Part shown: positions 2,161-33,400 of the stretch, one piece after another
How positions within the stretch are numbered: position 1 is the first letter of the stretch
Layout: the number at the start of each line of letters is the position of its first letter
NCBI GenBank assembly: GCA_973895155.1
Contig: OZ316894.1
Coordinates: forward strand, 10,509,874-10,573,873
Length of the DNA: 64,000 bases
Direction: 5' to 3'
Origin: Marsupella aquatica
Lineage: Eukaryota; Plantae; Marchantiophyta
Notes under the pieces: generated by a model
The model's input: only the letters and a program-made list of their open reading frames with translations
Told to the model about the DNA's origin: nothing
Database searches by the model: none
Program-made: the position numbers and the translations under genes

Positions 2161-2190
2161 CACTAGTATAAACCGGGGGGTATTTAGACC

Positions 2191-2520
2191 CCATTAAACG
2201 ACTATTCAGTACTGTATAGGACTTGGAAACGACTGGGAAGGACTCCAATCCTTCATAGGACTGGAAGTCGTATGTTTTGTTACTATAATCAACTGAGTCC
2301 TTTATAGAACTAGTTTATAAGTCGTTTAATAGACTAGATTTTCAGTCTATTGTAGTCTTTGTGTGGGTAGCTTTGGTGAGTCGTTTTCAGTCTTTTATAG
2401 GCTACGATGGTGAGTCGTTCAGAATGACTAAAAAGGTTATGGAGGGTAGTCTTTAAATATACTTTGTGGGTTTATAAAACGACTAAAGTAAACACTTTGT
2501 AGGGTATGTATAAGTCTTTC
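2191..2520. repeat. CACTA subterminal repeats (ACGACT/AGTCGT motif, both orientations)
   Basis: Repeated aaacgact / agtcgt(tt) and decayed variants next to the left TIR. Decayed variants (agtctt, agtcat) near the right TIR. Typical position of TnpA-binding sites. Confidence 0.7.
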
Positions 2521-3022
2521 ATGTCAACTGGATATGAGTGATGAAGACCCCACTATACTACTTGGAATGAACTCACTCTTGTGCACAAATAACACATTCC
2601 ATTCATGTTTTAATGTGTATTTGGAATGAACTCACTCTATAAGCTCACCATTCATCATGTTAACATTAGAACACATAGAGTTTTAGAAAGCCATCTTCTA
2701 TACCATGTACACTAATATGAATTCACAGATTCAAACATCATAGAATACAAAGAAGGTCACAAAGTATTCTTCTATACCATACACACTAATATTGAAATGA
2801 TACAAAACAGATTCAAGTATCGTAGACAATCACCATAGAACCATAGTTTGACATCAATCACTTGTTTCATACATACAGAATTCATAAATATCAATGTCAC
2901 ACAAGCTCCTTCATCCTCTTTACCAACTGGAAAAATTGGTACAGATATTTCTTGGATCTTTCCAAGGCAATGTCAAAATGTGACACAATTCACATGATTC
3001 TATCTACACTTGCATTTAGTCA

Positions 3023-6000
3023 CTACAGACTAACACACTCTGATGGCCACAGCACAAGAGATCCTACTGCATCTGCAATTATTTCTTGAGGTGGATCATC
3101 GTCTCTATTCGGAAATGGCAAATTACAACCGGATACAATCACTGTATTCAACAACACCACTACATGGTCATCTGGGACCACTTTGTCATGGAATTTAGCA
3201 TGATCCGGTCGCAAAATGCCTGTACCCACACATACCTGCCAGTCATCCTCCCATGATAGAAGATTATAGATTGGCTCTGTTGTGGCTATCACCTCCACCT
3301 TACCCTGGTTGTTTTTCTTGGCTTTCCTAGGTGGCTTATACATGACATTATTCATACCTTGGTTGTGAGTCATGACTTTGGCACGAGTGTTTTGTGCTGG
3401 TGATTGAGAATTGGCTACACTCTTCTTCAAAGAATCTGCATCCATATTTGACACTTCCGATTGTGTAGCAGGATTTCCCTACGACATCATCTCAGTATCT
3501 GCCAACATTGTACTTGCTTCAATTGAAGCATCTACAATCTTACTTGCATCCAATGTTGCTCCCAAGTTTCAACGTCGCTTCACCCTGCTCCCACTTGGTT
3601 GAGAGTCTATCAACTCTACATCAACTACAATTCAGTGTCATGTCCAACATAAGTCAATCACTCATGACACGTGCTAAATGTACATGTCACCAACCACAAA
3701 GTTGTCACTATCTCCTTACCATTATGAACAACCTTCTTCCCCTTCTTTGCCATTGCCATATCCTCCATGTTTGCTTCTGCTGATCAATTTACACACCACA
3801 ATATTCAGGTTGAATCTATTAACCACTGAATTGTTTCTCAACATTCATATAGAGGAATTTAAAGCATCAGCTTACCTGATACCTCCTTGGCTATGGTCAC
3901 TGAGGCACTGGGCACATCTTTTTCATTATTGCTCTTTGAATCACCTGATACATCAATCATGATGTCACTTCAAATCCCAGTTGATCCAACCAGTTCTTAC
4001 AGAAAAGATTACCTCCAACCTGCTTAAGCTTCACAAACTCCATGCACTTTTCAAATGATTCATACTGGATCATAGCAGGTTACCTATCTCAGCAACCTTC
4101 TTGCCCTTCTGCTTATTGATTACAGGGTCCTTCTTTGCCTCCACTCTTCCTGCATTCAAACCATTGAACACTTAATTCATGAAAACTTAGTTCTAACATT
4201 TGAACATAGGACACAATGAACAATGGGCCGGTGTCATTTCCATACCTGTGTCAGATTTGCCAATTCCCTTTTTTGTTAACAAGGGCACACTTTGTACAAT
4301 GTTGCCCTCATTGTTTGATTGGGAACCACCCAATTTTTCAATCACAAGCTTGAAATTAGATTCCATTGATGCAAGAAGGTTTGCTACAGATGCCTCCACA
4401 ATATCCAAACAATCAGCCAATTTTGTTTCCACTCGAGGGAGTCCACACTCTAATGACTTCAACCGTTCACACATCTCTGTGAGAGTTGTAACAGTTTCCT
4501 GTCATAACACAACTTACATATCTCAGATAACTGTCCCCAAGAACTGGTTGCTTACTTCCTACTACATTTCTTTCTGATGCTCAAGGCCAAATAGTCACAG
4601 AACATACAGAATTACAACATAATCACCTGTTTGGAAGTCACACTTGTCACCTCACTCCTTTGTTTCATGAACTCCTCTCTCACTTCTTGTGCTGATGGTT
4701 CTTCACCTGTCAATTTCTTCTGCAGTCCACATCAACATACATATGAATGAAACCAAGTATTGATTGTCAATGAAAATATAATAATGGTAGCAAGATGATA
4801 AGTTTGAGGCTTACTATCAGGCATGTCACTGCCTTACCAATTGTTCTTTCACTAGAGCATAACTTCCTCTCCTAGCCTGTGAAAGGTGTTTCACTTTGCC
4901 TTGAGCATTTGACATCAGTTCACTCTTGCTCTGTCCAGCCTCCGACATGAACCCTTTGATTAACCGTATCCATTGATCCAGTTCCAATGATGGGGGTGGT
5001 GGCATTCTCCTGTTAGAACCATTGTCTATCCACATCCTTTTCAACCTATGCCTCTCTTGTTTCAAAATCCTCATTGCATAATCTGATATGCAATCTTCAA
5101 CTGGGCCCTTACCATCATTACCAACATAGTCCCACCGTTCAAGACTGTCCTTGCAGATAGCAACCCAATCAGCTTTGTTCTGACTCCTAAACTCTGTAAT
5201 GCTCAAATCTAACCAACGCAATACTTCTCCTCTTAGGTCAGAATGCCAACGGTTCTTACCATCACATGTGGGAGTTATCCAACCATCGGAATTGACTTCT
5301 ACTTTACCAAATTTGTTACTGTCTCCTGCCTTGGTACTCCCTGAAGCGCTACTAGGTGTCCCTCCACGGCCTGGGGTCCCTCCACGGCCTGATCTCCCCC
5401 CACGGCCTGGATTGCATTGTCCAAACCTCCCTGGAGTCCCTGCACATTTACGGGATCCATTAGGTAAGTATGAAGCATAAATTTTGCTGCCAAATATACA
5501 CTGGACTTCAGAGCAATTCTGCAATGACCAAGTTACCTCTCCCTTGGCGCATAGATGGTTCTGGACCACCTGTCCAATTGCTTTGTCTTGATGAATTAGC
5601 GCCATTTCTCCCGCCTGTGAATGATTGCCTCCTATCTGAACGTGGATGGCCTTTGTTGTTTTCGTGATTGTCCCAATCAGAGTCTGCATAACAACAGGTA
5701 CATGCCACACTGATGGACCTGTAAGATAAACTCTTTGCCATAGCTAGACATCAGATAAGTCCATATTGAGCTAAATCTCTACTACCATCACAAAATCACT
5801 AGCACAAGGCACTTACTTGTCCAATCATCCTCCTCACCTTTCCATTGCCCTCTGTACCCGTCTATACCACGCTCTGGGTGTTCATATTCATCCCATCCAT
5901 CTTCTGCTCCATCATAGTCATCATCATAATCATCAAGCGTCCCTTGCCAATAACTCTGGCTCCTTCTAGGGTATGGATTATGTGATTTCTCTCTAGCTGC

Positions 6001-6158
6001 CCACCTACCTGGCACTTGATGAGGGCCCGTGCATCCTGCACAGGTGCATTTTTCTGTGAGCCCCCTGCATCTGGATCTCCATCCATATCCAATCTTTCCT
6101 CTTCACCCCACTCTCCAAGCCCCATGTCTGTCTCCATGTCATCACCCTCTTCCCCCAT
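3023..6158 (-). pseudogene. TnpA-like (ORF2) multi-exon CACTA accessory gene, probably disrupted
   Basis: Acidic N-terminal exon (5862-6158), ORF 4826-5710 with GRGG repeats and ...QWIRLIKGF...SELMSNAQ, small exon KKLTGEEPSAQEVREEF (~4650-4720), and C-terminal FHDKVVPDDHVVV...LPFPN...IADAVGSLVLWP. Typical of plant En/Spm second ORFs. Exon structure only partly resolved. Confidence 0.7.
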
Positions 6159-6335
6159 AGCTTATGCACAGCACCCACAACCAAACAGGGAGAATCAGCA
6201 CACTAGATTCAAAGTATCAATCAATTTCATGCATATCCAACTATCCTAAACATCATTCCAGGCAGCAATTCCCGTTCTGTGACTCTGTGCAGGTAGTCAT
6301 CCTCAACCTCATACTTGCCAATTGCCAATTGTTGC

Positions 6336-9300
6336 CTATTGCACATCATCAACCTCATCATATTCCATCTCCCCAGGTTCATCATATGTCTCTCTCAATG
6401 TTAACGGGATGAAGTCGGTCCTTGCCCGAGTTGGAACTACAGTCTCCTGACTAGGATGCTCGAATGCTGCATGGTCGTCCAAACTGAACTCTACTTTACT
6501 TCCATCCATCCGCCTGTTCCGTGCTTGGCTATGGCATACCACCCTCCAGTCATGTGACCCCTCCACATCTAGAAAGAAAGCCTGTTCAACTTGGCTAGGG
6601 AAAACAAAAGGTTCAGACCATTCTGGTACTCTGGATCTAAAATTGGCCAACAAGAACCCATCAGGATCACGCTTCATGGTGGCCCTTGGCCTCTGCCATT
6701 CTGATTTCACCCATGCTTCCTTCATCAATATTACAGGGACACTTGTGTTACCATAATTCAAGACCCAAATGTCTGTCGACTCCCCCACGTAACCCATCTT
6801 CATCCACCCCCTCTGTTCTTCAGAGGTTCTCTGCTCAAACACAGATATCAAACCACAATCATATGATACACAATGGTCACCCTGCTCATCCCTCACTTGA
6901 TAATGATTTCCATGTAAGCTCTCATCCGTTTGTAGGTCAGAATAGACAATCGTGGTGGCACAGATAGAAGATACAAATCCTTCTCCATATTTGGGTGATG
7001 TCTACTATGCTCTCGAATTGCCACCCGAATCCACTGCTCGAACTGTGGGAAGGGATCCTGCTGCCCAGAGTGTGCAGCTTTTTGCATATCATATTCCCTG
7101 CAATATGAGGTACAGGCATAGTTAGGTCTAAACAACACATGATAACCTAAGATCACCCTTGGAATAGACAAGAAGCATCACAACAAAGGCAAGTCAATTC
7201 AATCACTCACCTCCATCATGGTTGCATAGGCTCTGTGTTTGCCAGCATATATGAATGAGCCTTGTCTCGAATCGCAACAGACAGCTGCACAACACGTCCC
7301 ACACCTTCAACAACCTCGCCACTCCATCATCTTCACCAGATTTCCAAACTCTTGTCATAGCTTCACCAGACCCAGCCATGTACTCTGTTAGGAACCCCAA
7401 CGTCTCATCCTTAATGTACCCCAATGCCATGGAAGCCTCTGGCCTGTAGTATGTTCTCACATGACCTTTCAACAACTTCATGTATCGCTCCATAGGGTAC
7501 ATCCATCTCGTACTGACTGGCCCATACTGCCCTAGCTCTTCTGCCACATGGATTAGGAGATGAGTCATAACATCAAAGAAAGCAGGGGGAAGTATATCTC
7601 CAAGTCACAAAGGACATAAGCAGCATCCTGCTTCAACTGCTCCAATCCTTGGGGATCCCACACTTTCACACATATACGGCGAAATATATTGCATAGTCGA
7701 AGAATGACATTACGGACTGGTTTTTGCATGAGACCTCTGAGGCATAGGGGCAAAATGTGCTGCATCAACACATGGTAGTCATGTGTTTTCATACTGCCAA
7801 GTTTATTCTTTGTAATATGCTTCTTGAAGGCACCAGCATAGCCAGAGGGCACTTTTAGACAGCTCAATCTATACAAGAATGTCTTCCATTCTTCCTGTGT
7901 GCACACATAGGGAGCTTGGAACTTGAGAAGTACATTGGGATTGCTTGCATGGGGCTTCAACCAAAGGTGAGGGCAAATCCCCTTCTATTGCATATCAGCT
8001 CGAACTGCTCCTGTATCTTTCTCACCCGACAAGAACTTCAGCAAGCTCTCACAAATATTTTTCTCAATGTGCATGACGTCCACATTGTGTTTGCTGGGCT
8101 CAAATTCCTGCACTCCACAAAGCAAAGAATTCAACAACAGAAACACTAATTAACCAAATAGGAGGATTGTAACCAACATCAATCCACCATTGCTCCAATC
8201 TAAAATGTAGATCATACAGGGGCTGAAGGCTAAGTATATTACCCTCCAGTACTCCAACTCCAAGTCCATCAAGGTCTGTCTTTTCACACCGTGTCTCACC
8301 ACTGGATCCTCAGGTTCTCAATCAGTGGCACTTCTCTTGTCCCAATCAGCCTTCCTGGCTGCCCACCTCAGGACTTGCTCTTTGGTGACCCTCTGTGGTG
8401 GGCCACGAAGCTCTGTTTTGTTGTTGAAGTGTGCAATTTGAGACCATGTGTGCCTGTAAGGATGATCAGCAAGCAGATACCTTCTATGCCCCTGAAATTT
8501 CATACTGTGCAGGGCATGCGACCACTCACTTGTCACATTTTTCCCACATGGTGTGCACCCCACATAGCCCTTTGTCACTCGTCCAGATATGATGCCATGG
8601 CCTGAGTAATCTGCTATATCCAGCAAACAAATTGCATGCAGTCTAAAGGGGCTGGGTTGAAGAAGCCCCTTCAGAACATCATGGGTTAATACCCCTTCTA
8701 TCCACAAAGTCTTCGACTCTTCCACTGCTGGAGCCAACATAATATCTATGAATTGCTCGGTCAGAGAAGTTGGTCCAGGGATTAGCAGCACCATCATCAC
8801 ACAAAACCTCTTTGTAGTCATCCATGGGGGAAGGTTGTAATTTAGCAGTGTAACCGGCTAACATGAACAATGGTTGTTTTTGTCTCCAAATGGGTTTACT
8901 CCATCCAGTGATAGACCAAATCGAAAGTTCCACTTCTCTGTAGCAAACTGTGGCCACCTCTCATCAACAAATTTCCAATGGTTGGAATCTCCAATGTGAC
9001 GCTGCATGCCATCACTGTTGTTGTTATCAGAAGTCCATGTCATCAGCTTGGAAATGGCAGGGCATCTAAACAGACGTTGTAGTCTAAGAATGAGAGGAAA
9101 ATGACATTGAAGAACCTTGGCAGGGTGTGTACATTTCCCTACATTCTTGTACCTGTGCTTACCACAATGAGGGCATGTCAATTTATCTGCATGCTCTTTG
9201 CGAAAGAGAACACACCCATCAGGGCATGCGTCAATAGACACATAGTTCAGCCCAAGGTTAGACATCAATTTCCTAGCCTCGTACATATTTTTTGGAATTG

Positions 9301-10040
9301 AATTACCATCTGGTAACACATTTCGGCGCAAGAAGGTCAACAAATTTGTCACAAATATATTGGGAACATTGTGATTGCCACAGATGTTCAACAACAACAC
9401 AACAAAACCCAGCTTGGAGCAATTTGACCCCTCGTAGATAGGAATGCAAGCTTCTTTGGTGTGTTTTGGGCCCCCAAACACCCACTCCCTCTCTGCTGCA
9501 CCTTCCCAGATGTCAAAGTCAGGTTCAGGTGGGCCGTGTCCAATGTGTGGCTGTGGTTCATTGTCCTCTTCTGATTCCACTATGTCGTAAAAAGCATCAA
9601 GGTCTTAAAAAATCTCTTGAACCATTCTTGGGACATCCATCCCACCGTCCTCAGTGACTGCCTCTGCATCTCCATCTTGGTCATCCACGTTCTCGATCAT
9701 GTTGTACCCCAGGACCATCCTCTGCACCGTCTATGTCCTGCTCTACGTAGTCTCTACGCCTAGCTGTATTAGAATCCACAAAGTCAGCTCTCCACTCTTC
9801 ATCAGAGGAGTCTTCTTCTGCTGGTACATTCCAAACCCTTCACCGAGGGTGCCTTTCATGCCGTAGCAGGTGAAGGTGCACAGTGTTCAAACTCAACGAC
9901 TTGAATCCTTGGCACTGTGTGCATGGGCATCTCATCCTCCTACCCCTACCTTGGGCGGCCCGGGCTTGTTCACGCATCCACAATTTAGAATCATGATGCC
10001 TAATCCTAAATGGGTTATGAAGAGGCAACCTTGGAGCCAT
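6336..10040 (-). pseudogene. CACTA TnpD transposase (Transposase_21 family), several frameshifts
   Basis: Motifs RCPCTQC, YVSIDACPDGCVLF, FGLSLDGVNPFG, DVMHIEKNI (~8055-8085), MKTHDYHVLMQHILP, HLLIH...GPV..RWMYPMERYM and EPFVFPSQVEQAFF, spread over several frames. Probable intron ~8110-8242. Confidence 0.95.
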
Positions 10041-10371
10041 CACTATAGACACCCACTCAGCGCCCTGTCATTTTATTATGCAAGTGAAAAATACACTCCC
10101 TGTTAAGGATTTCACCCCCGACTGTACTTGCCAAAAGACGTAGCATAACGTTCCAAAAAAGCAAAAAAGCAAAAAATATAGGTGCCTGAGTCATGTACCT
10201 ATTCTCAAGTGAATGAGACAAAATTCCTAAATGTTTGAGGGTGTAAACTCCTCCGCTGTCCTCACATGTACTGCCTCTGCACGTACATCCATGACCATAT
10301 CAGAGTCCAATCATGTATAGTCATAGACACAGGTGCCAGGTGCGAGACCGGTGTGAGATGTCCTCATCTTA

Positions 10372-10904
10372 CTACCACATCAAATACGGATACCAATCCT
10401 GTTGTCGATGCCACTCAGCCCTGAGGTACTCAGGCATGTACATTAAGTCATCAAGGTCTAAACCCTACTCATGCCATGGTGGTCTTCGATCCGTGCCTAC
10501 AAGCAGTGGCAGTAGTGCCCTCCACGGTGCACATGTTGCTACCAAGTCCCTCCACTGGGTACTAATTAGTCTATATTTGCAGATATCTTGTGCGCCAGAC
10601 ACACAAGAACCCTTGGCCAGACATGTGTAAGAACTATATCATCTGCCAAATCAGGCAACAAGGAACCCCCTACAGCATCGTGCTTGTCTAACTCATCTGC
10701 TGAAAAGTAAATGTCCTCTTCGGACTGTGCATCCTCATTCACTACAGCATTCACAACACATCCAAGGTCTGCAGGCATTATCTCGGATGGAGCTACACTC
10801 TGTCTGGTTACCAATCTACACATGTAAGCCCAAGCAGTAGCCATGCACGATGCAACCCATAGGAGGACCCTACATAGGGCCTGCAGGTCTGGAAGAGGTA
10901 GCAT
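10372..10904 (-). pseudogene. F-box-domain cargo ORF (one frameshift, one internal stop)
   Basis: LLPDLADDIVLTHVWPRV then, after a frameshift near 10595, AQDICKYRLISTQWRDLV. These are the two halves of the F-box consensus (LP.E/D.I...I...L / L.R...VSK.WR.L). Confidence 0.72.
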
Positions 10905-11080
10905 ACCCACCAAAGTCTTCAGCCAAACAGAGCCTAGCAAGTAGATTCACAGTCACACCCCACGCAGCAGGAAACAACAATCACTTCAACTGCGACCAGC
11001 CATGACAAGATGAGTTAGTTCAAGCATCACATTTATTACAAAATTGTGATTTATACAAAAATATGAGGGACTCCTACTCC

Positions 11081-11937
11081 TCACTCTCTCCCACCATTGC
11101 TAAACATACATCTCCGCTGAATCTTGGAGGGCCAGGCCTCAAAAATATCAAAGTCCCAAGCATTCTGTCGCTTCCCTCTTGTTGCTGATTCCAGAAGCCA
11201 ATCAGGGGAAAGCACCCAAAGATTGTTGTTCATGACAAAATGACGCACTGTTGTCTTAAAGAATTTTCTGCATATTTTCATGTATGACAGACCTACAACA
11301 TGAGTGGAGGTTTCTGTTAGACTCTCCTCCACTGTCCCACCTAGCTCAACAACTATGGACTTGTACAGTCTGCACTTAGTCTCCCCAATTCCCTCTTCTG
11401 CAAATACCACACTAAACCCCTTCATAATGGTATTTCTCTCCTTGCCATGCTCATTCAATATAGCATCTGCACGCATACGATGGTGTCTTATGTTGACAAC
11501 AGGTCCATATTGGACAGAAGCAAAGTTGGATTTCTCTGCCGTTGCTTCATAGGCTTCCTTTTCAGCCAAAGCCTCTGCAGTGGCATCCTCACTCTCCCAC
11601 GTACATTCAACTCATATTGCTCAGTACTCTGTACACACCTATGTTTAACAGAATCAGTCAGCCAAGAGACTTCAACTACTTTTAGACCTAGGTTGGTAAT
11701 GGCAGAATCAATGAAGGACCATGACCACTTGTTCATCACATCCAGCCATGTCCCTGCAACAACATGTGTAGTCTGTGGAGTGATGTCCTTGACTTCAGTC
11801 CCATGGAACTCTGAGAATTATTTTTGTACGATTGGCCAACTCACTTGGGTGAACCCATAGTGGCTAGGAATCAAAATGGCTTTGATTCCAGCCAACAGAG
11901 GCGGGTGGTCAACCTTTGTACGTTTCCTAGAGGCCAT
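11081..11937 (-). pseudogene. Tandem-BRCT cargo ORF (pol lambda-like BRCT), one stop and one frameshift
   Basis: BRCT1: LLAGIKAILIP...*FSEFHGTEVKDITPQTTHVV...KVVEVSWLTDSVKHRCVQSTEQYEL, with a stop at 11818-11820. BRCT2: MKGFSVVFAEEGIGETKCRLYKSIVVELGGTVEESLTETSTHVV...WVLSPDWLLESATRGKRQNAWDF. Confidence 0.85.
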
Positions 11938-12232
11938 GTACACACGGGCCACCTAATCACTACAGACCGGAAGATAATGCGTTCACCTGATAATCGAAGG
12001 GCCCTTAAAATGTTGCGTTTATAGCTTGGTCCAGTCCAGTCGTCTGATGAGTCTCTGCTCCGATTCCAAATGGAAGAAATATTGGGACAAACGTACTAGA
12101 CACCTGCAAGGATGCACCTCATAGTTTGAATATGTGCCTTCACAATATTGAAGGTGACAAGTGCAATTGTTTTGTGATGCCACATACAGATGTTGTAAAT
12201 GGGCAGACATTCAATGAGAATACAAAATGTTG

Positions 12233-15200
12233 GTACACTTTAAGGGAATTCTCGCAAATTAAATAGCATGTAACTTATATGCTCATAATGAGAAGTTCTG
12301 ATTTAATTTAAGCAGTGTCATGTAAGTCGTGATCAAAATGATTGCAGCGTTAAAAAAGTTCCTAGAAGGCTTAAGGGGAGTTTTTGAAGGCATGTACCCA
12401 GGAACAAGTAATGAACAACGGTCATTCAGAGAGAGGAGACAAGAGAAATTGATCTAGTCACACCAAGGAGACGCAGAAGTGGCAGTGTGGGCTCGGGCAC
12501 TTCATCGGGAGGCCGGATCTGACTATAAGCTCGGAGGGATCAAGGGGAGATTGGCATCATAATGGGCAGTATGTTGCGAGCCGTCTCATGGAATGTGTGT
12601 GGGCTGTGTGAGCCCAACAGAAAGAATGCGGTGAAAAATTGGATTGAATCTCGGAAGGAAAGGTTGGACATTTTAACACTGCAAGAAATTAAAGCTGACC
12701 AGTTTAGGCTTGATATTGCGTTGAGAGTAATTCTGCCTGCGTATCAGTGTGTCACTTCAATCCCTGAGGAGGGACGGGGAGGCACTTCCCTTCTCATACA
12801 CCCTGCCATTAAAGTGGTAGCTTCAGGCATTGTGGATCTCGGGCGAGCAGCATGGGCATTAGTAGAGTTGGAAGAATGCAATTTTGGTGTAGTGAGCGTG
12901 TATGCTCCTAATTCCCCCAAAAGGAGGGCTATTCTTTGGAATGAATTAAAGCTGCTGCTGCCCCAAGCAAACTGGATTGTTTGTGGGGACTTTAATATGA
13001 CTGAGAGGCGGGTAGATTCTATTGGGAATTCTCCTTTTATCAGGGGCCGAGAAGCTGAGTTTTGGCGATTCTTTAAGGTGAGATTTAATTTGGTGGATGC
13101 AATACTCTTGAAGGGAGCAGCAAATGGGGCATGTTTTACCTGGCGCAGAAATAGGAACGGGAGCATGGTCCAATCCCGGCTGGACAGGTTCTATTTCAGT
13201 GATAATGGAGACTAGATCGAACAGCTGCTGAAGCTTGAGCATGACGGTGGTTCGGCCCTCTCGGATCATGACCCTATTGTGATTTGTGTGAGAATGGTTG
13301 ATGGTCTGCGGGGGGACTGCCCTCGGAAAAGGATTAGACTCTTTAAGGCAAATCCGGCACTATTACTGATTGATGGTACAGTGGAGGCTTTGCAAGCGGC
13401 ATGGTATGAAGGAAAAGGGGACTGCTCTGAACCAATACTGGCTTTTGACAAGGCTAGCAGGAACTTGAGACGAGTGTACATGGGGAAGCAGGCTTCACCC
13501 AAGAAGCAAGAGGAAGAGATGCTGCTATTGCGAAATCAGCTACGGGTGCTGAAGGTGGCGATTATGGAAGAGAGTTCAGAAAATGAACTGCAGGAGTACA
13601 TTGAAACGGAAGACCTATTACACGCAGCGGAACTAGAGGAGGCACATAGAGTAAGACGACTGGCAAGAATCAAGTGGCTGGGGGAGGGAGAGGAACCCTC
13701 TCAATTTTACTTCGCAACGGTAAAGGCAAAGCGGGAACGGGAGGCGATGAAGTACCTAATGTTAGAGGGAGGGACGGTGATCACAGATGCGGGGATGATA
13801 ATGAGAGAAGTTGAAAAGGTGTGCATTGAACTATATGCCCCCGCTGCTCCCACTACTCATGAGAGGGGAAATACTCTTAGGGAACGGGGCAAACTGCTGG
13901 AGCACACTTGGGCTTCTTTATCCACTGCGGAGACTGCAAGGCTGGAGGGGCTGCCAAGCGCTAAGGAAATCCAAGAGGTGCTTTGGGTACTCCCAAAAGA
14001 TAAAGCCCCTGGCCCGGATGGACTTTCGGTGGAGGTATACCAGGCGTGTTGGGAATTCATGAACGAGGATCTGGTCGCCATGGTACAAGAGTTCTGGCTG
14101 ACTGGGAAGCTGGCAAGTGGGATCAAGGAGGGGACGATTAAGTTCATACCCAAGAAGCCTGATAAGAGAATGCTGAAGGATTGGAGACCTTTAACTATGC
14201 TGAACACCATATACAAGCTGATTGCTAAAATATTGGCACTTCGATGAATCAGGATTCTGCCACAACTTATCAGCCCGCAGCAGACGGGCTTTATCCCGGG
14301 AGAAATATTTTGGAAAACATTTCGCTGGCCTGGTTAACCTTTGACTGGCTGAAAAATAGGAAGCATGAGGCACTATTTCTTAAGCTAGATTTTGAGAAGG
14401 CGTTCGATAGAGTAGATCATGATTACATATGGGAGACGATGCATCTGTTAGGCATAAGTAGCAATTTTATTAAATTGGTACAGGCACTGTTGTCGAATTC
14501 AACGTCAAGAATTTACCTAAATGGGATGGTATCCACTGAGATTGAACTTAAAAGGGGAGTCAGACAGGGCTGTCCCCTATCATCGCTCCTGTTTGTAATC
14601 TCCACGCAGCCACTAATGGACTTCATGGATGCAGAACTAGCTATGGGTAGACTTGCAGGGATACAGGTTTCTGAGGCACTTACAATTTGTTATCGTTTCT
14701 TCACGGATGATTTGGGGGTGTTTACGCCTGCCACGGAGAGGAATTTTCAACAGGTTACTGCAGTAATTGAGTGCTATGAAGCTGCCACGGGGGCCCGACT
14801 CAACTTGAGGAAATCGATAATAATCCCGGTTGTTCTGGGGGACATACCGAGATGGCTTAGGGACACGGGATGTATGATCAGTGGAAGGGGGGAGTTACAG
14901 AAATACCTTGGGGCTCCATTAGGCGTTGACTTGAAGATTGAGCAACTGCACACCTTTGTCCTGGACAAAATTGGACAGAGACTATCCTCATGGGCTAACA
15001 AGCTTTTGACATTCACAGGACTATTGCTGCTGGTGTGGCACATCCTACAGGCTATCCCGATTTATCACTCCATGTTCCTCAAGGCATCCTCTGGATTGGC
15101 GAGGAAAATGATGGCGCTGTGTAGAGACTTCTTATGGGGATATAATGCGGAGGGGGGACGGCGGGTGCCATTGGTATCTTGGGCCAGGCTGTCCCGCCCA

Positions 15201-16714
15201 CAGACTGAGGGGGGGTTGGGGATTAAGGACTTTAGGAGTCACTCGGATGCGCTGCTGGCTAAATGGTTCACTAGATCGCTTGATCACCCTGAGTCAGAAT
15301 GGGCTTGTATGTTTGCGGAAAATTTAAATCTGATCGGATGGACAAATTACAAAGTGGTAAGACAAAACAAATACTCTTTTCGGGACAAGATGTTACTCTG
15401 CAGTCCGGGGGCACTCCATGGATTGGCTTACACGGGAGGACTCTGGAAGGCATGGGATTTGCTGCGGTCAAATCTGATATTCTGTCCAACGGATAGGATA
15501 CCGGGGAGGTGGTCGGTTGGGGATGTACTCCGGTGCCTGAAGGGCTTTCAGTCTTGGAGCAACGCGGATATGGCTGCTACCACGGTGCTCTGTGGGAGAC
15601 TGGGTATAAGATGTATACAGGACCTCTGGTCGGAGGACAGACAGGAGTGGCAAAGGATAGAAGGACGATGGGAGCATTTGAGGGGACTCACACCTGAGCA
15701 CCTGACTCTAGGCAGGAATTTTATGGAGGCCTTGTATGAAATTGCACATTGTGAGTGGAGATATGAACCAGGACCCGATTGCTGGTGCTGGGCTGATAAT
15801 TCCGCCCCTTTGAAGTGCTTCAAGCTCCCCAATCGGAGGGCTTACCACCTACTTCGACCTGTGCTGGGGGATGCGCCCAGTCTGAATAGGACGTGGGGTA
15901 CAGGTAAGACTGAGATGGAATGGAATGTGTGTTGGGCAGGTATGTGGGCGGCAAGCATGTCACTGCGGGCCAAGACCTTCATGTGGAGAGTAATAGCTTC
16001 AGGGCTGTTTATTGGGGTGAGGGCGGTTAAGATCGGTCAAGAAAGTGGGGATTGCAAGCTATGCCCGGGAATACTTGAGTCCATTCCGCACTTATTTATG
16101 GATTGCCCACATGCACATAAATGTTGGGCTCTCTGTGCACAAGGCTTTGGGGGAATCTTTGCTGGATACACGGGGGGACTGATTGGGTTGGTGGATTCTG
16201 CAATTGGAAGGCGCCACAACAAGACTGTTATGATGGTAGTGCTTTTTCAGATGTTGTGGGCTTTGTGGCTGGGGCGGAATGAGCACATGTTCCAGGTTGA
16301 TGGGAGTAGGAAGTTAGACTTCAGATTCATATTGTCGGAAGCAGCGGATCATGTCTCTGCTATGTTAATTACATTGCCAGTTTGTAATCGGAAAACTCGA
16401 TTACTGAGGGCTAAGGAAATGATTAATAGGGAACGGATTGCATGGATGAGGCGTAGTGATGTATGGATCACTTCAGGATAGGACAATATGATCTGGGGGA
16501 ATTCTGGTAGGAAGACATGATGACAGCAGTAGCTGCTTGCCTGGCTGTTTGGCGGGGCTGTTCGCATATGTGGCTCTTGTGACCCGCCTTGGGGTCTGGG
16601 CCATCAGGTCTGGGTTACTTTTTGGCTCTTTTTGCTGTTTGGTGCTTGGAATTGTCTTTTGGTTCTGTCTGTGTCCTCTGCCACGGGGTTTTCGTGGCCA
16701 CCATTTAAAAAAAT
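12233..16714 (+). mobile_element. L1-clade LINE, 5'-truncated within ORF1, inserted in the CACTA
   Basis: 13-bp TSD ATACAAAATGTTG at 12220-12232 and 16715-16727. Short A tail 16707-16713. T-rich 3' UTR. Confidence 0.92.
12562..16481 (+). pseudogene. LINE ORF2: AP endonuclease, reverse transcriptase, C-terminal zinc finger
   Basis: SWNVCGL, LQE, VYAPN, GDFN, SRLDRF, SDHDPI, KAPGPDG, WRPLTMLN, LDFEKAFD, GVRQGCPLS, FTDD and CKLC...HLFMDC. In-frame stop at 13213-13215 and frameshift near 14245. Confidence 0.95.
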
Positions 16715-16832
16715 ATACAAAATGTTGTAAGGAAGCATCCTCTCCTAGAGAGGTCCTTCTTCTCAAAATTGGAATGTCTGCAATCTCCAAGGTATCCACA
16801 TCAGGTGCACTATGCATGTACATTATTCAGGT

Positions 16833-17513
16833 TCAAAGCCAAGAAATGTGATCTCTCATGGGAGTGTGCAAAGTAGGATCTATGGCATGGCGATGACAAT
16901 AGAAGATCCATCAATCAACACCATGTGCAGAGTGATGATAGATGTGTCTGTCACAAGCATAGCCTTTTGCTTGACACTCCTTCAAACAATGAAAGTGCCA
17001 CATGGTGGGACACCTAACACAGTGGACTATGTCCACCCAAAAATCTTCATCGTGCTGACCACATGCCTTGCACTTATGAAGTGGGCAAGCTGTGGCAAGA
17101 TTGGGCAAACATGAAACACAAAAGAACCTCACACAATATCTGTCAGGGCATTTCCTAACAAGTGGTGGAGCATCAACAGAGCCCTCATAAGACCCCAACT
17201 TCCCACACTGTGCACACTTAGCCTGCTTCTCCAAACAATCAGTGCACATCCAGCCTCCTTGGTGTGCTGACGGGAGGCCTACCCCTGGACAGTTGTTTTC
17301 TGCAACAAGGTCAGACTCCGGGTTGAGGTGGAAATGCCTCATGCAAGGGCCCTCACATATGGCTAAGCCCCAACCATCGTCACAAATGGCACAACAATGA
17401 GCTGCCTTTTGGAAAATCTGACTTGCGGATAAGTTACTACCATCTGGCCCAACTACACCTGTGTAGCTCATCTCTGTCCCCCGCTTCTTGGCTCGGATTT
17501 TAGGGCGTGCCAT
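16833..17513 (-). pseudogene. EDM2-type PHD-finger cluster cargo ORF (single internal TGA)
   Basis: CAICDDG..LAICEGPCMRHFH, C..C..K..KC..CGKLGS, CPLHKC..C and C.RCP..WH..CL. Past the TGA at 16911-16913 it reads WIFYCHRHAIDPTLHTPMRDHISW, matching the recalled EDM2 post-PHD motif LIYC..HEID..L.TP.RDH. Confidence 0.85.
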
Positions 17514-20500
17514 GCCTACGCATGAGACAGATAGTATAATTTAGCAGAGTGCACAGACAATTTAGCAGTGTACAAAAAGTACAGTGTAGCATATAGACTA
17601 GAGTGGCAATTGCTACTGCAATGAAATGTTCACACACAGATGCAGAGTAGACATACTTTTTGGTTTGTTGACCCCACACTAAAAACTGATCCCCTAGTAC
17701 AATAGCTCCACCTACACCTCAATTTTGTGGCTATGATTTACCAAAGGAGATCTGCAACAAGATTTAATGCATTTGAATCACATACAATAGTCGTGACATG
17801 TAAAACAGGCATTTTTTGAATAGGATTGGTATCAAGCAGTGTGATCAGGGTTGTAATTTATACATCCTAAATAGGCTATGATAGTGAATGAGACAAATAA
17901 GTTAGGCATAAATCACTTTTTCCAGGTTATCACATGGCCCATTAATTCCAGTCTTTGAAAGGAGACTTTTAAGTGAGCTTGCTAGCCTCTTAAATTAGGA
18001 TATTGTACTTAGTGCAGCCATAATAGGATAAGTTATGTACTGTTGACCCTAAACCCTGGACCCAAAATTGCTCATAATTCAAAATTTTAAGTAAATATCC
18101 TCTTTGTTCAAGTCAAAGTGTTAAGTTATAGGTCAATGGTCTCTGGTCTGTGCATGCGGTGTGACAAGTGGTCCTCTAGAGCGTGTGATCCAAACATGTG
18201 TAGACACCAAAGTGACCGGTGGTGGGGTCTGGGAGGGCAGGACAAGTGACATCGCCAGGCACACTACAGGATGGCGAGTGGTTCCAGATGATACATTGTG
18301 CTCTGTGAAAAAACCGACATCCAAGAGAACGGTCATCCAACTCTAGGCTAGAAGCCCTACAGGCAGGGCAATCATATTGGCAACTGTGCACACACCCTTG
18401 GGCCCTAATTTGTGGCGGGTCATGTACGAGAGACAAAAATACTAAGGATGTTGGGAAGGGTGGAGAAGCAGGTACAGGCCGGCTGTAGTTGTTCCTGGCA
18501 ACAACAGGGTACTCAAAGTACCATGCAAACTGGGCTGGAAGGATCCCAAGTTTGACATACTCAAGGCGCAACATCTCTGCCTTGCGTGCAAGCCGCACAT
18601 GTTCAACGTTGTGGGTCCTCACCATAAGTGCTGCTTTTGTGGAGATGACGTGTGTTCACGTCGTCTGATAAGCACCTTCGATCAACAAGGTGAGCAGGAG
18701 CTGTACTTGCCTCACCAACAGCAACCAACCTTAAATTATCAGTTCCCACTCACTGTGTCATTCCATTGGTTCCAGCTAGAGGTCACAGTATAAACATAGC
18801 ATGAAACACTCCTAATCAACTTGCTTACAAACTACAATATCCAGAAAGAGTGAAAGTCTCACCCTGCAGTGAGCAGTAGAGAGGTAGTTCACTGGATGTG
18901 TTGATGTGCAGTTAAACCTCCACTATTGCTTACTTCCGATGTATGCTGCTCAGAAGAAGACATCTTAGTAGTAGGAAATTGCAAATAATGGCCATAAGCA
19001 AACCGTGAGAGTTTGCAGAATGCTACGACAAGTAGGATTATGAAATTCAATTGTGAGCAAAGGGAAAATGTAGTCTTACTAATACTTCACCTTCTGACTG
19101 AATTCTAGAGGATATTTGAATTTCCAATTATAGCAGGATCAGAATGAGTGTGAGATAAATGCTTTCATTTCATATCGAAGCTCAACTGAGCAGGTCAAAG
19201 CGACAGTTGCAATGAAGGACACTATGTACATAGACACAATTAAGACAAGAATTCTTCAATCTATACTGGAATCAAGGTTGCACAACTTACCAGGAAAAAG
19301 GGGCAATTGGAGCAAGATCTCTGCAAGAAAGGGCACCCCCACAAAGAATGCTAAAAGATGTCAACCGCCCATAGCTGAAGGTAAACACTGTGAGCTTTTG
19401 AAAACAGACAAGGCTTGAGGGATTCATCCAATGTCCCACTTCAAGGCAAGACAAGACTATTCATCCATCACAGCAATGCTCAACAGGAATGAAACCAAGC
19501 AAAATTTGGTGACCTCGGCCAATGACAAGGCCAATGTAGTGAACAATCCTTGACCGATCAGGATATGGATTGGAATTACAATTAGTCAGCTCTTCTTCTT
19601 CTTTGTTTTCTAACTCTGGGGGAAATGAGCATGACCAGGGAATTCTCTGAGAAATAGAAGTGCACAGGGAAAATGAAATTGGCTCATTCAGCTGCACAAG
19701 ACCGACCATTGCAACATACTTGAGACAGTTGTTCCGCAATCCATAAAATACCCTGACTTACATGCAATCTGTGTAGTGCTTCTGTTGGCTGTCCTGCAGC
19801 TCACGGCAGTGCCGTTGGGATAGGGTAAGTGAATATTGCCATAGCTGAAGCACATTCAGCTTGCAGCAAGAAGTGAAGGAGCATGGCCAAAAGCAGAAAA
19901 GACAAACACTTGATTGTTCTTCCCTAATACACTGAAGAATTGGTGCAAAACTTGGGCAGTCAAAGGGGAGAGAGGGAGAGGGATTGAGAGACAGAGCTAA
20001 ACGCGTCTCTTGGCAACAGGAAACCATGACTCATGCACTAATAGAATGATTGGGTAGCATGGCAAAAGGAAAGACAAATTTCAAAATGACAACATGGCCC
20101 GCTTGAGCCCTTAATTTGACGGTGCTAGGTGTCCGTAAGATGACTGCCCGGAAGACAATCCGGACAACCTCATACGACAGACTGCTTTTCTAGTGTGAAG
20201 AAATACATGATTACAAGCAACACCACGCCTCATCCAAGCAGGGAATTGAAAATAGAACCATGTCATTCCTGTATTTGACAGTGTCCTCTGACATTGCACT
20301 GGATAGTTGTTATTCCATGTTGGTTGTCAACAGTTTGCTGGCTTGGCACAGCCTAGATAGAACAATAATATCCTGTACATGAATACAACAACATAAATCT
20401 GCATACAGCGATGGCCCGATCACTTGAGGCTTTCGAGCCCTCACAATGTCAGATGGTACCAGGATCTACAGGGGATGCTAAATGGCTTCTCTCAAATCAT

Positions 20501-21102
20501 GGAGTCTTGAATAACTCATATCCAGCGACAAACAAACTCAACAAATTCTGAATTCCTACCGAATCCAATCAGAATCGGCAATTTCAGCAGCTTTGACTGC
20601 CAAGACAAATCTTAATGAATTTCATTGTGTTGGGGTTTTCCATAACTCTTCAGCCATAGGGAGAATGTGTTGAACCTAATCTACCATTCAATCGGGCAAG
20701 CTGTATGCTACGGAGGTATGACATTGCTCAAAATAGGATGGACCAGAGGAGATGTGGCTACTATGCAGCCAGCTGAGAACAGAGCGGAGCGGATCTGCTT
20801 GAGCTCTGTTACTTGTTGTTTGGTTTTTGTGCATGAGTGTAAGGAGTGCGTGCGCAAGCCAGGGCCTATAGTAACCTTCAGCCTGTAGAGGCAATGAAAG
20901 TATTCAACAGACAACCCAACAAAACAATGTGGAACTAAAGTTGCTGGAAAAGGGATGAAAGAAGTGCACTTTGAGCTGCATGGCCGGGACTAACCTTTGG
21001 CTGATGACACTGATAACCAATGGCAGCACTATCAACTGCTTCCTCCTAAGAAATAACCGGCTCCCGATTCTACAACTGCTCTTTATGCTCCACGACCTCC
21101 TT

Positions 21103-21480
21103 CACAACTCCAATGTCCACCTTCCGCAGCAGCAACGATTGCCTCCCTGCTCAGCCTCCTTTCAATGCCTCCACGAGCTTAAGGACCCACTGCAGTCCAC
21201 CTTCCGCAATGGTCGCCTTCCACAGTGCCTTCACAACTCCAATGTCCACCTTCCGCAACAACAACGATTGCCTCCCTGCTCAGCCTTCTTTCAATGCCTC
21301 CATGAGCTTAAGGACCCACTACAGTCCACCTTCCGCAGTGGTCGCCTTCCACAACGCCTTCACAACTCCAATGTCCACCTTCCACAGTAGCAAACGATTG
21401 CCGCCCTGCTCACGCCTCCTTTGAATGCCTCCGCAACCTTAAGGACCCACTATAGTTAAACTTCCGCAGCAATCGCCTCA
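21103..21480. repeat. 129-bp tandem repeat, three copies (third degenerate)
   Basis: CACAACTCCAATGTCCACCTTCC starts at 21103, 21232 and 21361. Confidence 0.9.
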
Positions 21481-22999
21481 CCTTACGATAGACCTTGGCA
21501 CCCTAAACACCTTCCCAGATCATAGGTGCTCCCCTCAGCTAAACCCTCAGCGCCTCAGTGCCCAGATCACAACTCCTCTCGAACTGCAACTCGCTGAAAA
21601 CCTAAGCACTCAGGAGTGCCCTCGACAATGTTGCCATTGCGCTGCACATTGCCCTGCCGCACGACATTTCTCATAAGGAATGGAATAACCTAAGCACTCA
21701 GGACTTCCCTGGACATTGCCGTTGCGCTCCACATTGCCTTGCTGCACATCGTTTCTTGGTAGAAATAGAAAAATCTGGACCTCCAACACAATCTACAAAT
21801 CCTTTTGCAAGCAACTGGCCCTCTCCTCAGCAGGTCGCGATGGTAGCATGACTTTCTTGAAACAAATGGCAACACCAAGTCGCTTTGGGTGCAGCCACAA
21901 CACATCGGCGGTGTGGGTCAGGAGAAACGTGCAACAATGAGAGGCCACAAGAAAATGGGATCACTAAACCTCATTGTAGAGACGTTCCCACCAAGAGAAC
22001 ACGGAAAACCTTGCTCCGATCCCTAAACTCCCGATCCCACCAAGAGAACACAATAGGGCGGCTCAGATCGGAAGAAAGAGCCCTTGTGACTGTAAAACCC
22101 TTGGAACACTACGAAGCCCTGCAAAACCTCAACATTTGACATGCATTCGATGCTCTTCACTCACAACACTCACTAAACCAACACTTAGTGGGAGTAGTCA
22201 CGCTTACTCTTCACCCTGCCATGATCCGTTGAGATGAGCCGTTGAGTCTGCACCGTTGCGCACATGTAAGGGGTTTGTAGGATTGCCAAAATACCAAAAT
22301 ACTACATTAGGCCCTAAACAAGTCAGGTTAAATTTGGGCTCAGGGTTAGGGACAACTTTAAAGGAAACCCTTACCTACATGGCCATATTGGGTATGTTAT
22401 ACATTTATCTTGGCCTGGCAAACTTCAATAAAGTGGGATGTTGGTGAAGTAGAGTCGGCTGTGGTCGTCCAAATTATGCTAGCCCAATATGTGTGCACAT
22501 TTTTCTTGGCTAGGCAAACTTGAACAGAACGGGATGTTGGTGAAGCCAAGCACCCTAAATAGAAATTGTATATGTTGCCCATGCATAGCAAGGCCGATGA
22601 ATGAATTGAGCATAATAGCACTTACTATTTGGCAATCTGACCCATGCCCTTTTAGGGTGGAGGACAACAACGTCTCCTTGAGTCGAATCACTATGAACAC
22701 AATGAAGAGGGGGTTTAATCCAGTATGCAACCCCATGACCACCGCTGTCAACGTCCCCTAGAATTACCCTCCTCAGCATAAGTGGTCATTACCCATGATG
22801 TGCTAGACTATTCATCCTTCACAAAGTAGCAAGGTTACTTCTCATAGTCTTTTAGTGAACCATAAAACACTAATAGTCTTTTCTAGTTTTCAACAAAACC
22901 GGTGCAATGGGTGTGAGTCATTTTAAGTATGGAAAAAGGACTTAGTGGGCTTAGTCCTATAAGGTATGGTCTAAATTGCCCCGGTTTCTACTAGTGATT

Positions 23000-28528: not shown

Positions 28529-29369
28529 TCAATCGGTCTTCAGACCCACTTTCTGAGCTACCTTCTCTGCGTCACGTTTGACTGCCTTGGCTGCCTCCAC
28601 TCCTACCTCCTTCAGCCCGGTCGCAGTTTCAGACACCTTGCTAGGCATGTCTTTGAACATATCCTTCGCAGTATCTACATTCTTGGCCACCTGACCTGCT
28701 GCTTGATCTTTCGCTTCAGTTGCCTTTCCTCCTGCCTCGGCCGTCGTCTCCTTCACCTTTTCTTTCGCTTGATCTTTCATTGCGGTTGCCTTTTCTCCTG
28801 CCTCGGCCGTCGTCTCCTTCACCTTTTCTTTCGCTTCACCGACCTTGTGAGAACTTTCAGAAACCACATCCTCGGCGACTCCCTTGGTTTGCTCCTTTTG
28901 TTGTTTTATTTCGTTCGACTTCTTTTCATAGCTATCATCCACACTTCCCCCTCCCTCATTGACCATCTTTCCACTTTCATAATCACGAGTCTCTTCATTG
29001 TCGGCCTTTGCCTGTTCTCGTCATTAGTAATCGAGAATCACAATCAGTCCGTTATCGGGTGTTAGCATCTTGATCATTGTCTAACGCAAACCTCTCGGCT
29101 GGGAAATTATGTGATTTTAAATACAACCTCTTCTCCCCTAAGCTATCTCGGATGTACTATATGAAGAGACTCGGCACCTCAGAGAAGGAAACTTACGCAA
29201 CAAATGAACTTATAGAACTAACCTGAGCGTCAGAGTGTAATCCCCGGCTAGGGAAGAGCCGTCCTTGCCAAGGAACCGCAAGTGCCTCAAGGCTGGTGCT
29301 ACTGCCGTTGCCGATGCTCGGCCGCTGCAAGAGCGTCAGGAACTGCGCTGATATTCTCCGTGCAGCCAT
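28529..29369 (-). CDS. Group 3 LEA-like protein with predicted mitochondrial transit peptide, copy 1; exons 29369-29223 and 29011-28529, 209 aa
   Basis: Arg/Ser-rich MAARRISAQF...SRGLHSDAQ leader, phase-0 GT-AG intron, and K/E/A/T-rich 11/22-mer repeats (AKEKVKETTAEAGEKAT..KDQ). Very hydrophilic mature region with no Cys or Trp. Confidence 0.82.
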
Positions 29370-30471: not shown

Positions 30472-33400
30472 ATATATATATATTTATTTAAAATTAAACA
30501 TTTATTCCGCGTGAACCCCACTGATGGGGGAACCAGCAGGCCCAAGGGCAATAGAAGCCAGAAAGGCCAAGAAGAACACATAAAGCCAACAAGCGAGTGT
30601 ACCTGAGAGTCAAGAAAAAGTGTCACACAATCCAAAGCTTACAGTCTTCTCAGGATCACCTACCAATCCCAGAGCAGTACCCTAATCAAAAACCTCCAAC
30701 CGGGTTGCAGATTGCCCAGTCCATAAAACGGGAGAGATCCCAACAATTACCAGCCCACAAACACTAGGCACCCCATCTCCATCTGTCAACAGAATCTACC
30801 AGCCCCAGAATCTACCAGCCCCACAGCCATCTAACAAGCCTATGTAGCAAATCTAATTCCCCTTTGTGAAATCAAACGAGCACTGATGTTCCCTACCAAC
30901 TCCTTGGCACGGAGAGGTCGGGTGTGTTTCCTGCTTGGAGGAGAAGATCTCCCAGCCGCCAATAACATGTCATTTACCTCAGATAAAACCAGTGAAAGAT
31001 CGAAGCTTCTTCTCTTCCTATGATCAAATGTCTGCTCATTTCTGCCCAGCCATAACGTCCACAAGACCTGAAATAGAATATAGGCCTTCAGTGTGCTAAC
31101 ACAATCCCTCCCCACAGTGGAGTCCAACAAGGGGAGAAGAGCCAAAATAGGCCAGTTGAACCATCCAGCTAGACAGTCCTGTGTTACCTGCCAGCAACGC
31201 CGAGCATGTCTGCACTCAAAAAAGATATGAGGAATTGATTCCCAAGCATCATGACACAGCAGACATCGTCTGTTTCCTTTCCCAATTTTCAATGCCCGCA
31301 CTCCAGAGAACAGACCCTGCGCAGTGATCCTCCATATAAAGGTCTTGGCACGTGTAGAGATATCAAGTGTCCATAAATTGAGCCATAACTTACTCCATTC
31401 TCTCTCTGTCCTAGTACCTCCCCAGATCCTATTGAGTCGATTCATCTCCGAACCTTTTGGCCTAAGCAATTGATAGATCCTCCTGTTATCAAGCCTAAAC
31501 ATTCTCAGCCTATCTTCATTGTCAATCCAACGCCATGCAGTAGGTCTAGTAAGTCCAGTATAAGCCCCAGCCAAACAAGTCCTAGCAGAAGAGATCACTC
31601 CAATCACCTCCATACAAACGGTTCTGAGTGCCTGATCAATTCCACGAATCCTGTCCAATCGTTCTGCCACCGAGATCCAACATCTCTTACTCCCTGACCA
31701 TAGTGCATCAACTCTCTTAAGGCCAATACGGCCACAGACCTCAGCAACCGAGTTCAGACAGTCCTCCGGTAAAGATTGAAATCCTTCCAGACATTTGATC
31801 AGTTCAGAAAAACCCCAGTGCCCTGGGATAGCTCCATCCCGAGGGCAGAAAACCAAGAATAACCTAAGTGGTTCCCAAGCCTTCCACAGACTCCCAGTAT
31901 ACCTCAATTTACCAAAATTTGCTGGTGAACAAAGTAAAATCCTATCTGTCATTGAATAGCCATTTCTTCTAATATTCTTATAATTTTTCCACTTAGCCAA
32001 ACAAAGATTAGCCCCAAAAAGCAGGGCCCACTCTGTATTAGGGTGGTCCAAAGCTTTAGTAAACCACTGACACAACAATGCATCCGAATGGACCCGAAAG
32101 TCCTTGAAGCCTAAACCGCCCATCACCTTGGGTCGAGTCAAGGTACCCCAGGCCACCAGCGGGACCTTCCTCCCACCAGCCGGATTATAGCCCCAAAGAA
32201 AGTTACGACAAAGCGCTGTCATCTTTTTCCCTAGTGCTACAGAGGACTTTAGAAACATCATATGATAAATTGGTATTGCCTGCAGCACATGTTTAACCAG
32301 CAGAGCTCGCCCGGTGAACGATAGAAGTCGAGTAGTCCAACATGACAACCTAAGCACAATTTTATCCAAACAAAAGTCATGCAGTTTAGTTGTTAAAAGG
32401 TCCCGGCCAAAGGGAGCCCCCAGATACCGTTGTACCTCCCCAGATCCACTGATAGTACACCCAGACTGAGCCAGCCACTTAGGTATCACCTCAAGCGCCA
32501 AAGGTATTATCATTGACTTGTGGAGGTTCAGGCGAGCCCCGGAGGCCAACTCATAGACAGCCAGCGCATCCCTAGTTTGAACAAAAGCCACCTCTGTGGC
32601 CGGTATAACCATACCCAAGTCATCCGCAAACAATCGATAGCAGAGAGTCATTCCAGGTGTAATCTGAATTCCACTAAGTTTTCCTGATTTAATCTCAGCA
32701 TCTAGAAAGTCCATCAGAGGTTGCGTAGAGATGGTGAACAGCAGAGGTGAGAGCGGGCAGCCCTGTCTCACCCCCCGTAGCAACGACACCTCCCCTGAGA
32801 ACATTCCATTTACATGGATCCGAGAAGCAGAATTGCTTAATAGACCCTTCACCAGCAAAATAAAATGTGCGCTCAGCCCAAGTAGGTGCATTGTCTCCCA
32901 GATATAAGAGTGACTGACTCGATCAAAGGCCTTCTCAAAGTCCAATTTCAGAAAAAGGGACTCACATTTGTTATGCTTAACCCAATCCTCTGTAAGCCAT
33001 GCAATAGAAATATTCTCAAGAATATGTCTCCCCGGAACGAATCCAGTCTGCTGCACACTGATAAGGGAAGGGAGCAGCACTTTCAACCTCACAGCCAGCA
33101 GTTTAGCAATGATCTTGTATACAGTGTTTAGCATCGTGAGTGGCCTCCAGTCTTTCAGTCTTCTCTTATCAGGTTTCTTGGGGATGAATTTGATTATCCC
33201 CAACTTGATAGAGCAAGCCAGATCCCCATTCACCCAAAAAGCCTCTATCATTCTCATCATGTCATCCTTCATAAAGGACCAGCATTGTCTGAAAACCTCA
33301 ATTGTGAAGCCATCAGGCCCGGGGGCCTTATCCGCATGTAGCATCCAAATCGTCTCTTCTACCTCTTTAAGTAAAGGAAGGGCCTCCAGTAGCCTCGATT

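Follow-up and report, generated by a model that had tools for sequence, protein, structure and literature searches.

The window analysed here, a stretch of 64,000 nucleotides from the liverwort Marsupella aquatica, contains a CACTA (En/Spm) element of 20,836 bp that carries a small gene for a triple-PHD protein (Table 1). This gene had been proposed to be transposon-borne, and the structure of the element bears this out: its ends match at 17 of 18 bases, an identical 3-bp target site duplication (TSD) flanks it, transposase domains lie inside, and a Copia reading frame is continuous across the insertion. Terminal pairs in the window with at least 13 matches were compared; the pair 2161/22996 is one of two with 17 matches and stands alone in having the same 3 bp on both sides. 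CACTA termini, a 3-bp TSD and a Tnp2 transposase, the features that define the superfamily, are all found in 2161-22996. When the CACTA element was excised in silico, the reading frame of the interrupted element was restored. The CACTA element is therefore nested in another element, which we take to be of the Copia type from its motifs.

Table 1. Features of the CACTA element and its PHD gene (positions in the window)
Feature	Position	Strand	Remarks
CACTA (En/Spm) element, 20,836 bp	2161..22996	-	TIRs 2161-2178 and 22979-22996; TSD ATT 2158-2160 and 22997-22999
Further CACTA-type ORF remnants	4826..7001 (6336-7001, 4826-5743)	-	No Pfam match
Broken Tnp2/TnpD transposase	7000..10020	-	Transpos_assoc, Transposase_21, DUF4218; ends approximate
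Broken tandem-BRCT gene, second cargo gene	11081..11937	-	Stop and frameshift
Nested 5'-truncated LINE	12233..16714	+	Endonuclease, RT, zf-RVT; inserted some 120 bp beyond the end of the PHD ORF
Triple-PHD gene, EDM2/NSD type, intronless, 226 codons	16833..17513	-	Pseudogene in this copy
Post-PHD tail	16839..16883	-	Common to streptophyte EDM2-family proteins
Finger 3, C148-H209	16887..17072	-	Last ligand pair past the stop
Premature TGA, codon 201	16911-16913	-	Only in this copy; the family has Arg
Finger 2, C100-H146	17076..17216	-	Cys for the EDM2/NSD His ligand; EDM2 insert of about 27 residues reduced to 7; family signature
Finger 1, C41-C93	17235..17393	-	Long EDM2-type spacer between His and Cys; acidic residue before Cys41 missing; Gly48 changed to Trp in this copy alone
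Basic N-terminal decapeptide	17484..17513	-	NLS-like; also in histone H3 tail register

The PHD gene is located upstream of the tandem-BRCT and transposase genes, on the same strand as both. The transposase gene is broken and gave clear Pfam matches (Transposase_21, E 3e-51; DUF4218, E 7e-21). The product of the tandem-BRCT gene has a basic start and matched BRCT clusters in the Atlas at under 0.9; it is a second possible reader of chromatin or damage marks in the element. A 126-aa ORF between these two genes (10566-10946, minus strand) contains two stretches resembling the start of an F-box and was negative in Pfam. The ORF remnants resemble DUF4216/TnpA. No Pfam match was obtained in the six frames of 17541-22996, and a 129-bp tandem array of 2.9 copies (21099-21468) was observed near the 5' end of the element.

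A 13-bp direct repeat suggests 12233 as the 5' end of the nested LINE, and run X2, in which one contig has a loose end, suggests 12418. The first 12 bases of this loose end, to the left of 16733, are identical to 12406-12417 (a single contig, compared by eye), which indicates a LINE-free copy in which the PHD side is joined to the BRCT side. Capture of the PHD ORF by 3' transduction of the LINE was ruled out, as the ORF lies past the A-rich end of the LINE and on the opposite strand. A PHD-BRCT fusion was likewise rejected, since the family proteins stop at the same terminal motif. At about 18186, several contigs connect distant places to 18186-18187, and X2 cover is gone after 18217; another nested repeat probably ends here within the CACTA element. 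Outside the element, the window contains an inverted repeat pair at 34372 and 50723 (17 of 18 bases matching, flanks unlike), possibly the ends of small elements, a second, near-intact LINE ORF2 (30840-33995, minus strand), and a duplicated repeat gene (28529-29020 and 48647-49225, minus strand), presumably LEA-like, whose repeat number differs between the copies. A SEC23 exon in the window is 94% identical to that of Calypogeia fissa and 82% to that of Marchantia paleacea, which makes a leafy liverwort the likely host.

The original prediction described a 200-codon ORF with a basic N-terminus, followed by an in-frame TGA and a read-through tail, and translation reproduced all of these features at the same coordinates. 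Pfam detected three consecutive NSD-like PHD matches in 16833-17513 (E 7e-4, 2e-3, and 6e-3, all below the curated cut-off). The zinc ligands, read from the sequence, are C41/44/53/57/H62/C75/90/93 in finger 1, C100/103/122/127/132/135/143/H146 in finger 2, and C148/151/165/168/H173/C176/C206/H209 in finger 3. The claim of three successive Cys/His fingers agrees with the Pfam matches, but not with the 200-codon product, in which finger 3 is incomplete because the C206/H209 pair lies downstream of the stop. Similarly, the segment gained by read-through had been taken for an EDM2 motif. In the alignment, this is true of its last 15 or so residues, whereas the preceding part completes finger 3. 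Among the rows shown in the alignment, the post-PHD tail is missing from the oomycete sequence and degenerate in the chlorophyte one.

The protein had been called EDM2-like, and its best matches in profile, BLAST, and pairwise comparisons are indeed of the EDM2/NSD type rather than unrelated PHD families. The window protein aligned with residues 225-432 of Arabidopsis EDM2 at 29% identity over 211 columns (E 3e-23). Among 361 matches from a profile search, the best 150 comprised 134 EDM2/NSD-type proteins (a class that includes two non-plant-like rows), 14 further short family members assigned by pattern, and 2 unclassified sequences. The post-PHD tail was found by pattern in 107 of these 134 proteins, and EDM2 C-terminal motifs in 68. 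The named proteins among 30 that were looked up include EDM2 of Arabidopsis, Aristolochia, and Selaginella as well as long and short liverwort paralogues. In the Atlas, a cluster of NSD-like PHDs from streptophytes came first (0.93). Among metagenome contigs, one of 207 stretches was confirmed, and it encodes an unrelated PHD-repeat protein.

The standalone homologues (about 220 aa; about 30-80% identity) have the start, the end, and the finger signatures in common. As predicted, the methyltransferase-like domain of EDM2 is absent: the family proteins of 217-245 aa end directly past the tail and have no such Pfam match. Pfam also detected neither an N-terminal RFD nor an N6-adenine methyltransferase-like (ELP) domain in these proteins, and no SET or PWWP match alongside the PHD array. 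Linkage to CACTA is demonstrated only for the close relatives of the window gene.

Two trees were calculated, with 59 rows (4 fragments dropped) and 38 rows, respectively; animal NSD rows are absent from both. The standalone family forms one clade (100/100) with a long stem in each. It was placed near the short liverwort paralogues in the 59-row tree (87/70), and as sister to all green-plant rows in the 38-row tree (93/34); the AU test does not reject a group of the family with the non-plant rows (p=0.32). The EDM2-like identity thus stands for the PHD module and tail, and the position relative to the EDM2 clade shifts between the trees. In mean BLAST score, a bryophyte EDM2-family group came first for 8 of 8 members, and the short liverwort paralogues were the best group for five of the eight; non-plant rows scored lowest for seven (some rows were grouped by tree position and not by name). 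An EDM2-family PHD module is the likely origin of the family. The clearest single pointer to a streptophyte EDM2-family donor is the post-PHD tail; the placement of the exact donor within the EDM2 family is unstable between the trees. The short liverwort paralogues P0013, P0014, P0016, P0054, and P0056, which end soon past the PHDs, form a clade of their own (100/100); no description of it was found in the EDM2 and Marchantia literature at listing level.

Two of the fingers differ from those of EDM2. An acidic residue precedes the first Cys of finger 1 by 2-5 places in 122 of 127 EDM2-type rows and in none of 15 family rows. In fingers of the AIRE/BHC80 type, the acidic residue at this place binds unmethylated H3K4. 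Because it is lost, the histone specificity of EDM2 cannot be assumed for the family, and that of finger 1 has likely shifted. In finger 2, the family has Cys instead of His and a spacer of 7 residues compared to about 27 in most EDM2 rows. Zinc ligands are kept in the family down to about 40% identity. An intact family member was modelled from a 44-row alignment with a pLDDT of 88 and a pTM of 0.82; an earlier fold from 4 sequences (pLDDT 47) was discarded. The nearest solved folds are the PZP of JADE1 (E 1e-4, low TM) and NSD PHD-C5HCH tandems, with NSD2 PHDv-C5HCH as the best VIA match (Z 5.0, rmsd 2.7 over 75 residues). No EDM2 entry was among the matches listed in the fold searches, and a sequence search of the PDB found AIRE PHD1 alone (E 0.1-0.5).

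The N-terminus may have a meaning beyond nuclear import. Counted from the residue behind the Met, Ala1, Arg2, Lys4, Ala7, and Lys9 of the window protein are in register with the histone H3 tail. The start M[AT]RxK occurs in 8 of 20 family rows (7 at the start, 1 past an internal Met), compared to 3 of 134 EDM2-type rows and 0 of 120 SEC23 controls; the remaining 12 family rows include 3 that are N-terminally cut. All eight rows with the motif have Ala or Ser at position 7, and five have Lys at position 9, while the linker behind is hardly alignable. The basic "NLS" may thus be a mimic of the H3 tail, and it also fits a plain NLS. Part of the H3-like start may have been inherited from host EDM2, as 13 of the 134 EDM2-type rows start with M-A-R, host bryophyte and algal EDM2 proteins included. 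In the structural model, residues 1-10 and 11-20 have confidences of 66 and 46, with strand bridges at residues 2 and 6-7. The predicted complex of the PHD module with the N-terminal 30 residues, calculated without alignments, scored 0.07 against a mark of 0.34 and so speaks neither for nor against an interaction. The three EDM2-type rows with M[AT]RxK are all short PHD-only proteins, on a separate branch where placed. P0021, P0029, P0044, and P0083 are short PHD-only EDM2-type proteins of a seed-plant branch, three of which start with M-A-R-x-K; they may be an independent counterpart of the liverwort family.

Sister copies of the gene were assessed in contigs from 4 of 12 listed runs, covering 3 organisms and 3 studies (best share of words 0.51). 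The 1651-bp stretch around the PHD gene was found in 117-1893 contigs per run. The premature stop had been attributed to a CGA-to-TGA change. This proved correct, as Arg is present at this site in three of three close homologues, and position 16913 is G in 97-100% of the depth in all four runs; splicing around the TGA was ruled out, the family having Arg at codon 201. The three standalone homologues (217-226 aa; 76, 71, and 37% identity) are intact and end in the same motif. The prediction was to fall if the consensus copy were never open or lacked zinc ligands; we found open sister copies, and the family keeps its ligands. Dead sister copies exist as well, because a low-depth contig of run X2 has 8 gaps in the PHD ORF.

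The 40 best-supported of 235 differences were analysed, 30 of them inside the PHD ORF. A difference was called private when it reached a share of 0.88 or more against the window in each of the four runs; this cut-off was chosen post hoc, on rows already inspected. By this measure, 11 changes are private to the window copy (1 synonymous, 10 not), and they look like neutral decay. Of the 19 family polymorphisms, 10 are synonymous and 9 are not, compared to 23% synonymous expected (p=0.005), and the two classes differ in this respect (Fisher 0.02). None of 12 listed indels (of 18 in all) falls inside the 681-bp ORF (p about 0.002). The PHD gene therefore shows signs of being maintained by the transposon family under purifying selection, and this selection together with the presence in sister copies, from a partial variant list, is what marks an accessory gene of a transposable element. 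That its homologues form one clade with signatures of their own also argues for a maintained gene and not a passive fragment. For a binding test, the repaired window ORF would be a poor stand-in for an intact family member because it differs from the family by 9 more amino-acid changes of its own, Gly48 to Trp among them.

Taken together, we see an even chance that the window gene is a decayed copy of a liverwort CACTA accessory gene whose product engages the H3 tail and, as a chromatin binder, weakens or bypasses the silencing of the element. The PHD protein would be expressed along with the other element genes, enter the nucleus through its basic tail, use finger 1 to bind H3 with a specificity that has moved away from that of EDM2, and compete with host readers or writers of H3K4 and H3K9 marks. 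The H3-like tail might close over finger 1 of its own chain like a lid, or else act as a decoy substrate. With the acidic residue gone, finger 1 may also not bind H3 at all. The PHDs of EDM2 bind H3K9me2 plus other marks (PMC7472560). A bolder version, which we consider unlikely, would see a dedicated anti-silencing protein made by the transposon from a host heterochromatin reader, combining an H3-tail mimic with its own PHD reader. Host K4 and K9 enzymes would modify the mimic or be titrated by it, marking of the tail would turn the reader on or off, and the element would sense and subvert host histone methylation, with the tandem-BRCT protein completing a two-reader cassette.

It is similarly improbable, in our view, that the PHD protein, perhaps together with the BRCT protein, serves as a tether linking the transpososome to chosen chromatin and so steering insertion. 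Two likely chromatin-reader genes do lie directly upstream of the transposase, this copy inserted in a Copia element, accessory factors of transposable elements can alter integration preference (PMC13547354), and PHD fusions are known in MULE transposases (PMC12973397, Table S6). However, a single insertion site reveals no bias, the PHD protein has no evident transposase-binding part, and the H3-like tail would be superfluous. Even less probable is a role as a stand-in for EDM2 that recruits AIPP1 and ASI1 and thereby protects long transcripts of the element from being polyadenylated too early in H3K9-methylated chromatin. The PHD module is of the EDM2 type, the CACTA element is long with several genes, and the ASI1-AIPP1-EDM2 complex promotes full-length transcripts over intronic heterochromatin (PMC7472560, PMC7529245, PMC10241880). 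Yet the RFD, the methyltransferase-like domain, and the C-terminal parts are missing, and the host lineage already has long as well as short EDM2-family proteins of its own. The original prediction favoured such read-through of H3K9me2 chromatin; it is weakened by the retention of the PHDs alone, the acid lost from finger 1, the remodelling of finger 2, and the marks reported on Marchantia transposons, namely H3K9me1, H3K27me1, and H3K27me3, in a profiled set that does not extend to H3K9me2 (10.1101/827881).

Two further explanations do not ascribe a function within the element. A host family of small PHD proteins, lately captured by this one CACTA lineage, would owe its deep conservation to a host function. 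We regard this as very unlikely, even though the element context is known for close relatives only, and liverworts have short EDM2 paralogues near which one tree placed the family. None of the six family members examined comes from an annotated genome, despite the Marchantia, Riccia, and Calypogeia proteins in the collection; the gene has no introns, the ends of several members look frameshifted, and the synonymous excess was found among many near-identical copies. CACTA elements capture gene fragments, and the window copy decays neutrally beside broken neighbour genes, as would a functionless passenger of the Pack-CACTA type. This we hold to be the least plausible explanation, given the synonymous excess, the lack of listed indels in the ORF, the common start and stop, the zinc ligands kept in distant members, and the long stem to any host protein.

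To our knowledge, few counter-silencing proteins of plant transposons have been described. If the reading as a chromatin-binding accessory protein is right, a host-derived histone-reader module has been kept as a selected CACTA gene, which makes the small (226 aa), well-folding protein a directly testable candidate that bears on how DNA transposons read chromatin, here in a liverwort lineage whose transposon chromatin is unlike that of flowering plants. Should the N-terminus be a histone mimic, a trick of animal viruses and host enzymes would extend to plant transposons. The family also offers a natural minimal EDM2 PHD module, and no solved structure of EDM2 PHDs was found in our structure searches.

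Compared to Arabidopsis EDM2 and ELP, the family shares the tandem atypical PHD module, the long finger 1 spacer, and the post-PHD tail. By its architecture, however, the family protein is not an EDM2 protein: with 226 against 1297 aa, it has no RFD, no methyltransferase-like domain, and no acid before finger 1, while finger 2 has exchanged His for Cys and lost its insert, and the gene is transposon-borne. The short liverwort paralogues (Marchantia Mp1g03210; Riccia and Calypogeia proteins of 690-770 aa) also start with M-A-R, have their PHDs close to the C-terminus and have no methyltransferase-like motif past them. Unlike the family, they are annotated genes with an N-terminal part of 400-500 aa, and they keep the His and the insert of finger 2; their sister relation to the family is unstable across trees. 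The tandem PHDs of NSD1/2/3 resemble the family in the three weak NSD-like Pfam models and in the NSD2 fold match, but no SET or PWWP domain was seen in the family, and the non-plant rows, which scored lowest for seven of the eight members, are without the tail.

As a separate element-encoded gene beside the transposase, the PHD gene resembles VANC/VANB of VANDAL, MURB of MuDR, and TnpA of En/Spm; the available text of the two papers (PMC12973397, PMC13547354) does not describe these as histone readers of host origin. Table S6 of PMC12973397 has PHD in 5 MULE rows and in no CACTA row, with one BRCT row for CACTA; this negative is weak, as the family falls under the Pfam cut-offs and Calypogeia is not named in the available text. 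In PMC13547354, the available text makes no mention of PHD or EDM2. No report of a CACTA-borne PHD gene of this type was found in the literature searched, with Repbase/Dfam and subscription papers beyond reach. The gene, of EDM2 type, PHD-only and selected within a liverwort CACTA family but dead in this copy, is real and, as far as these searches show, undescribed. Chromatin readers on mobile elements include the chromodomain of chromoviruses, the PHD in LINE ORF1, and the PHD of RAG2, and histone mimicry by a short H3-like motif in a non-histone protein is exemplified by influenza NS1 and G9a. Distinct from these, the gene described here is a standalone triple-PHD gene of a CACTA element that unites the reader and the H3-like tail in a single chain.
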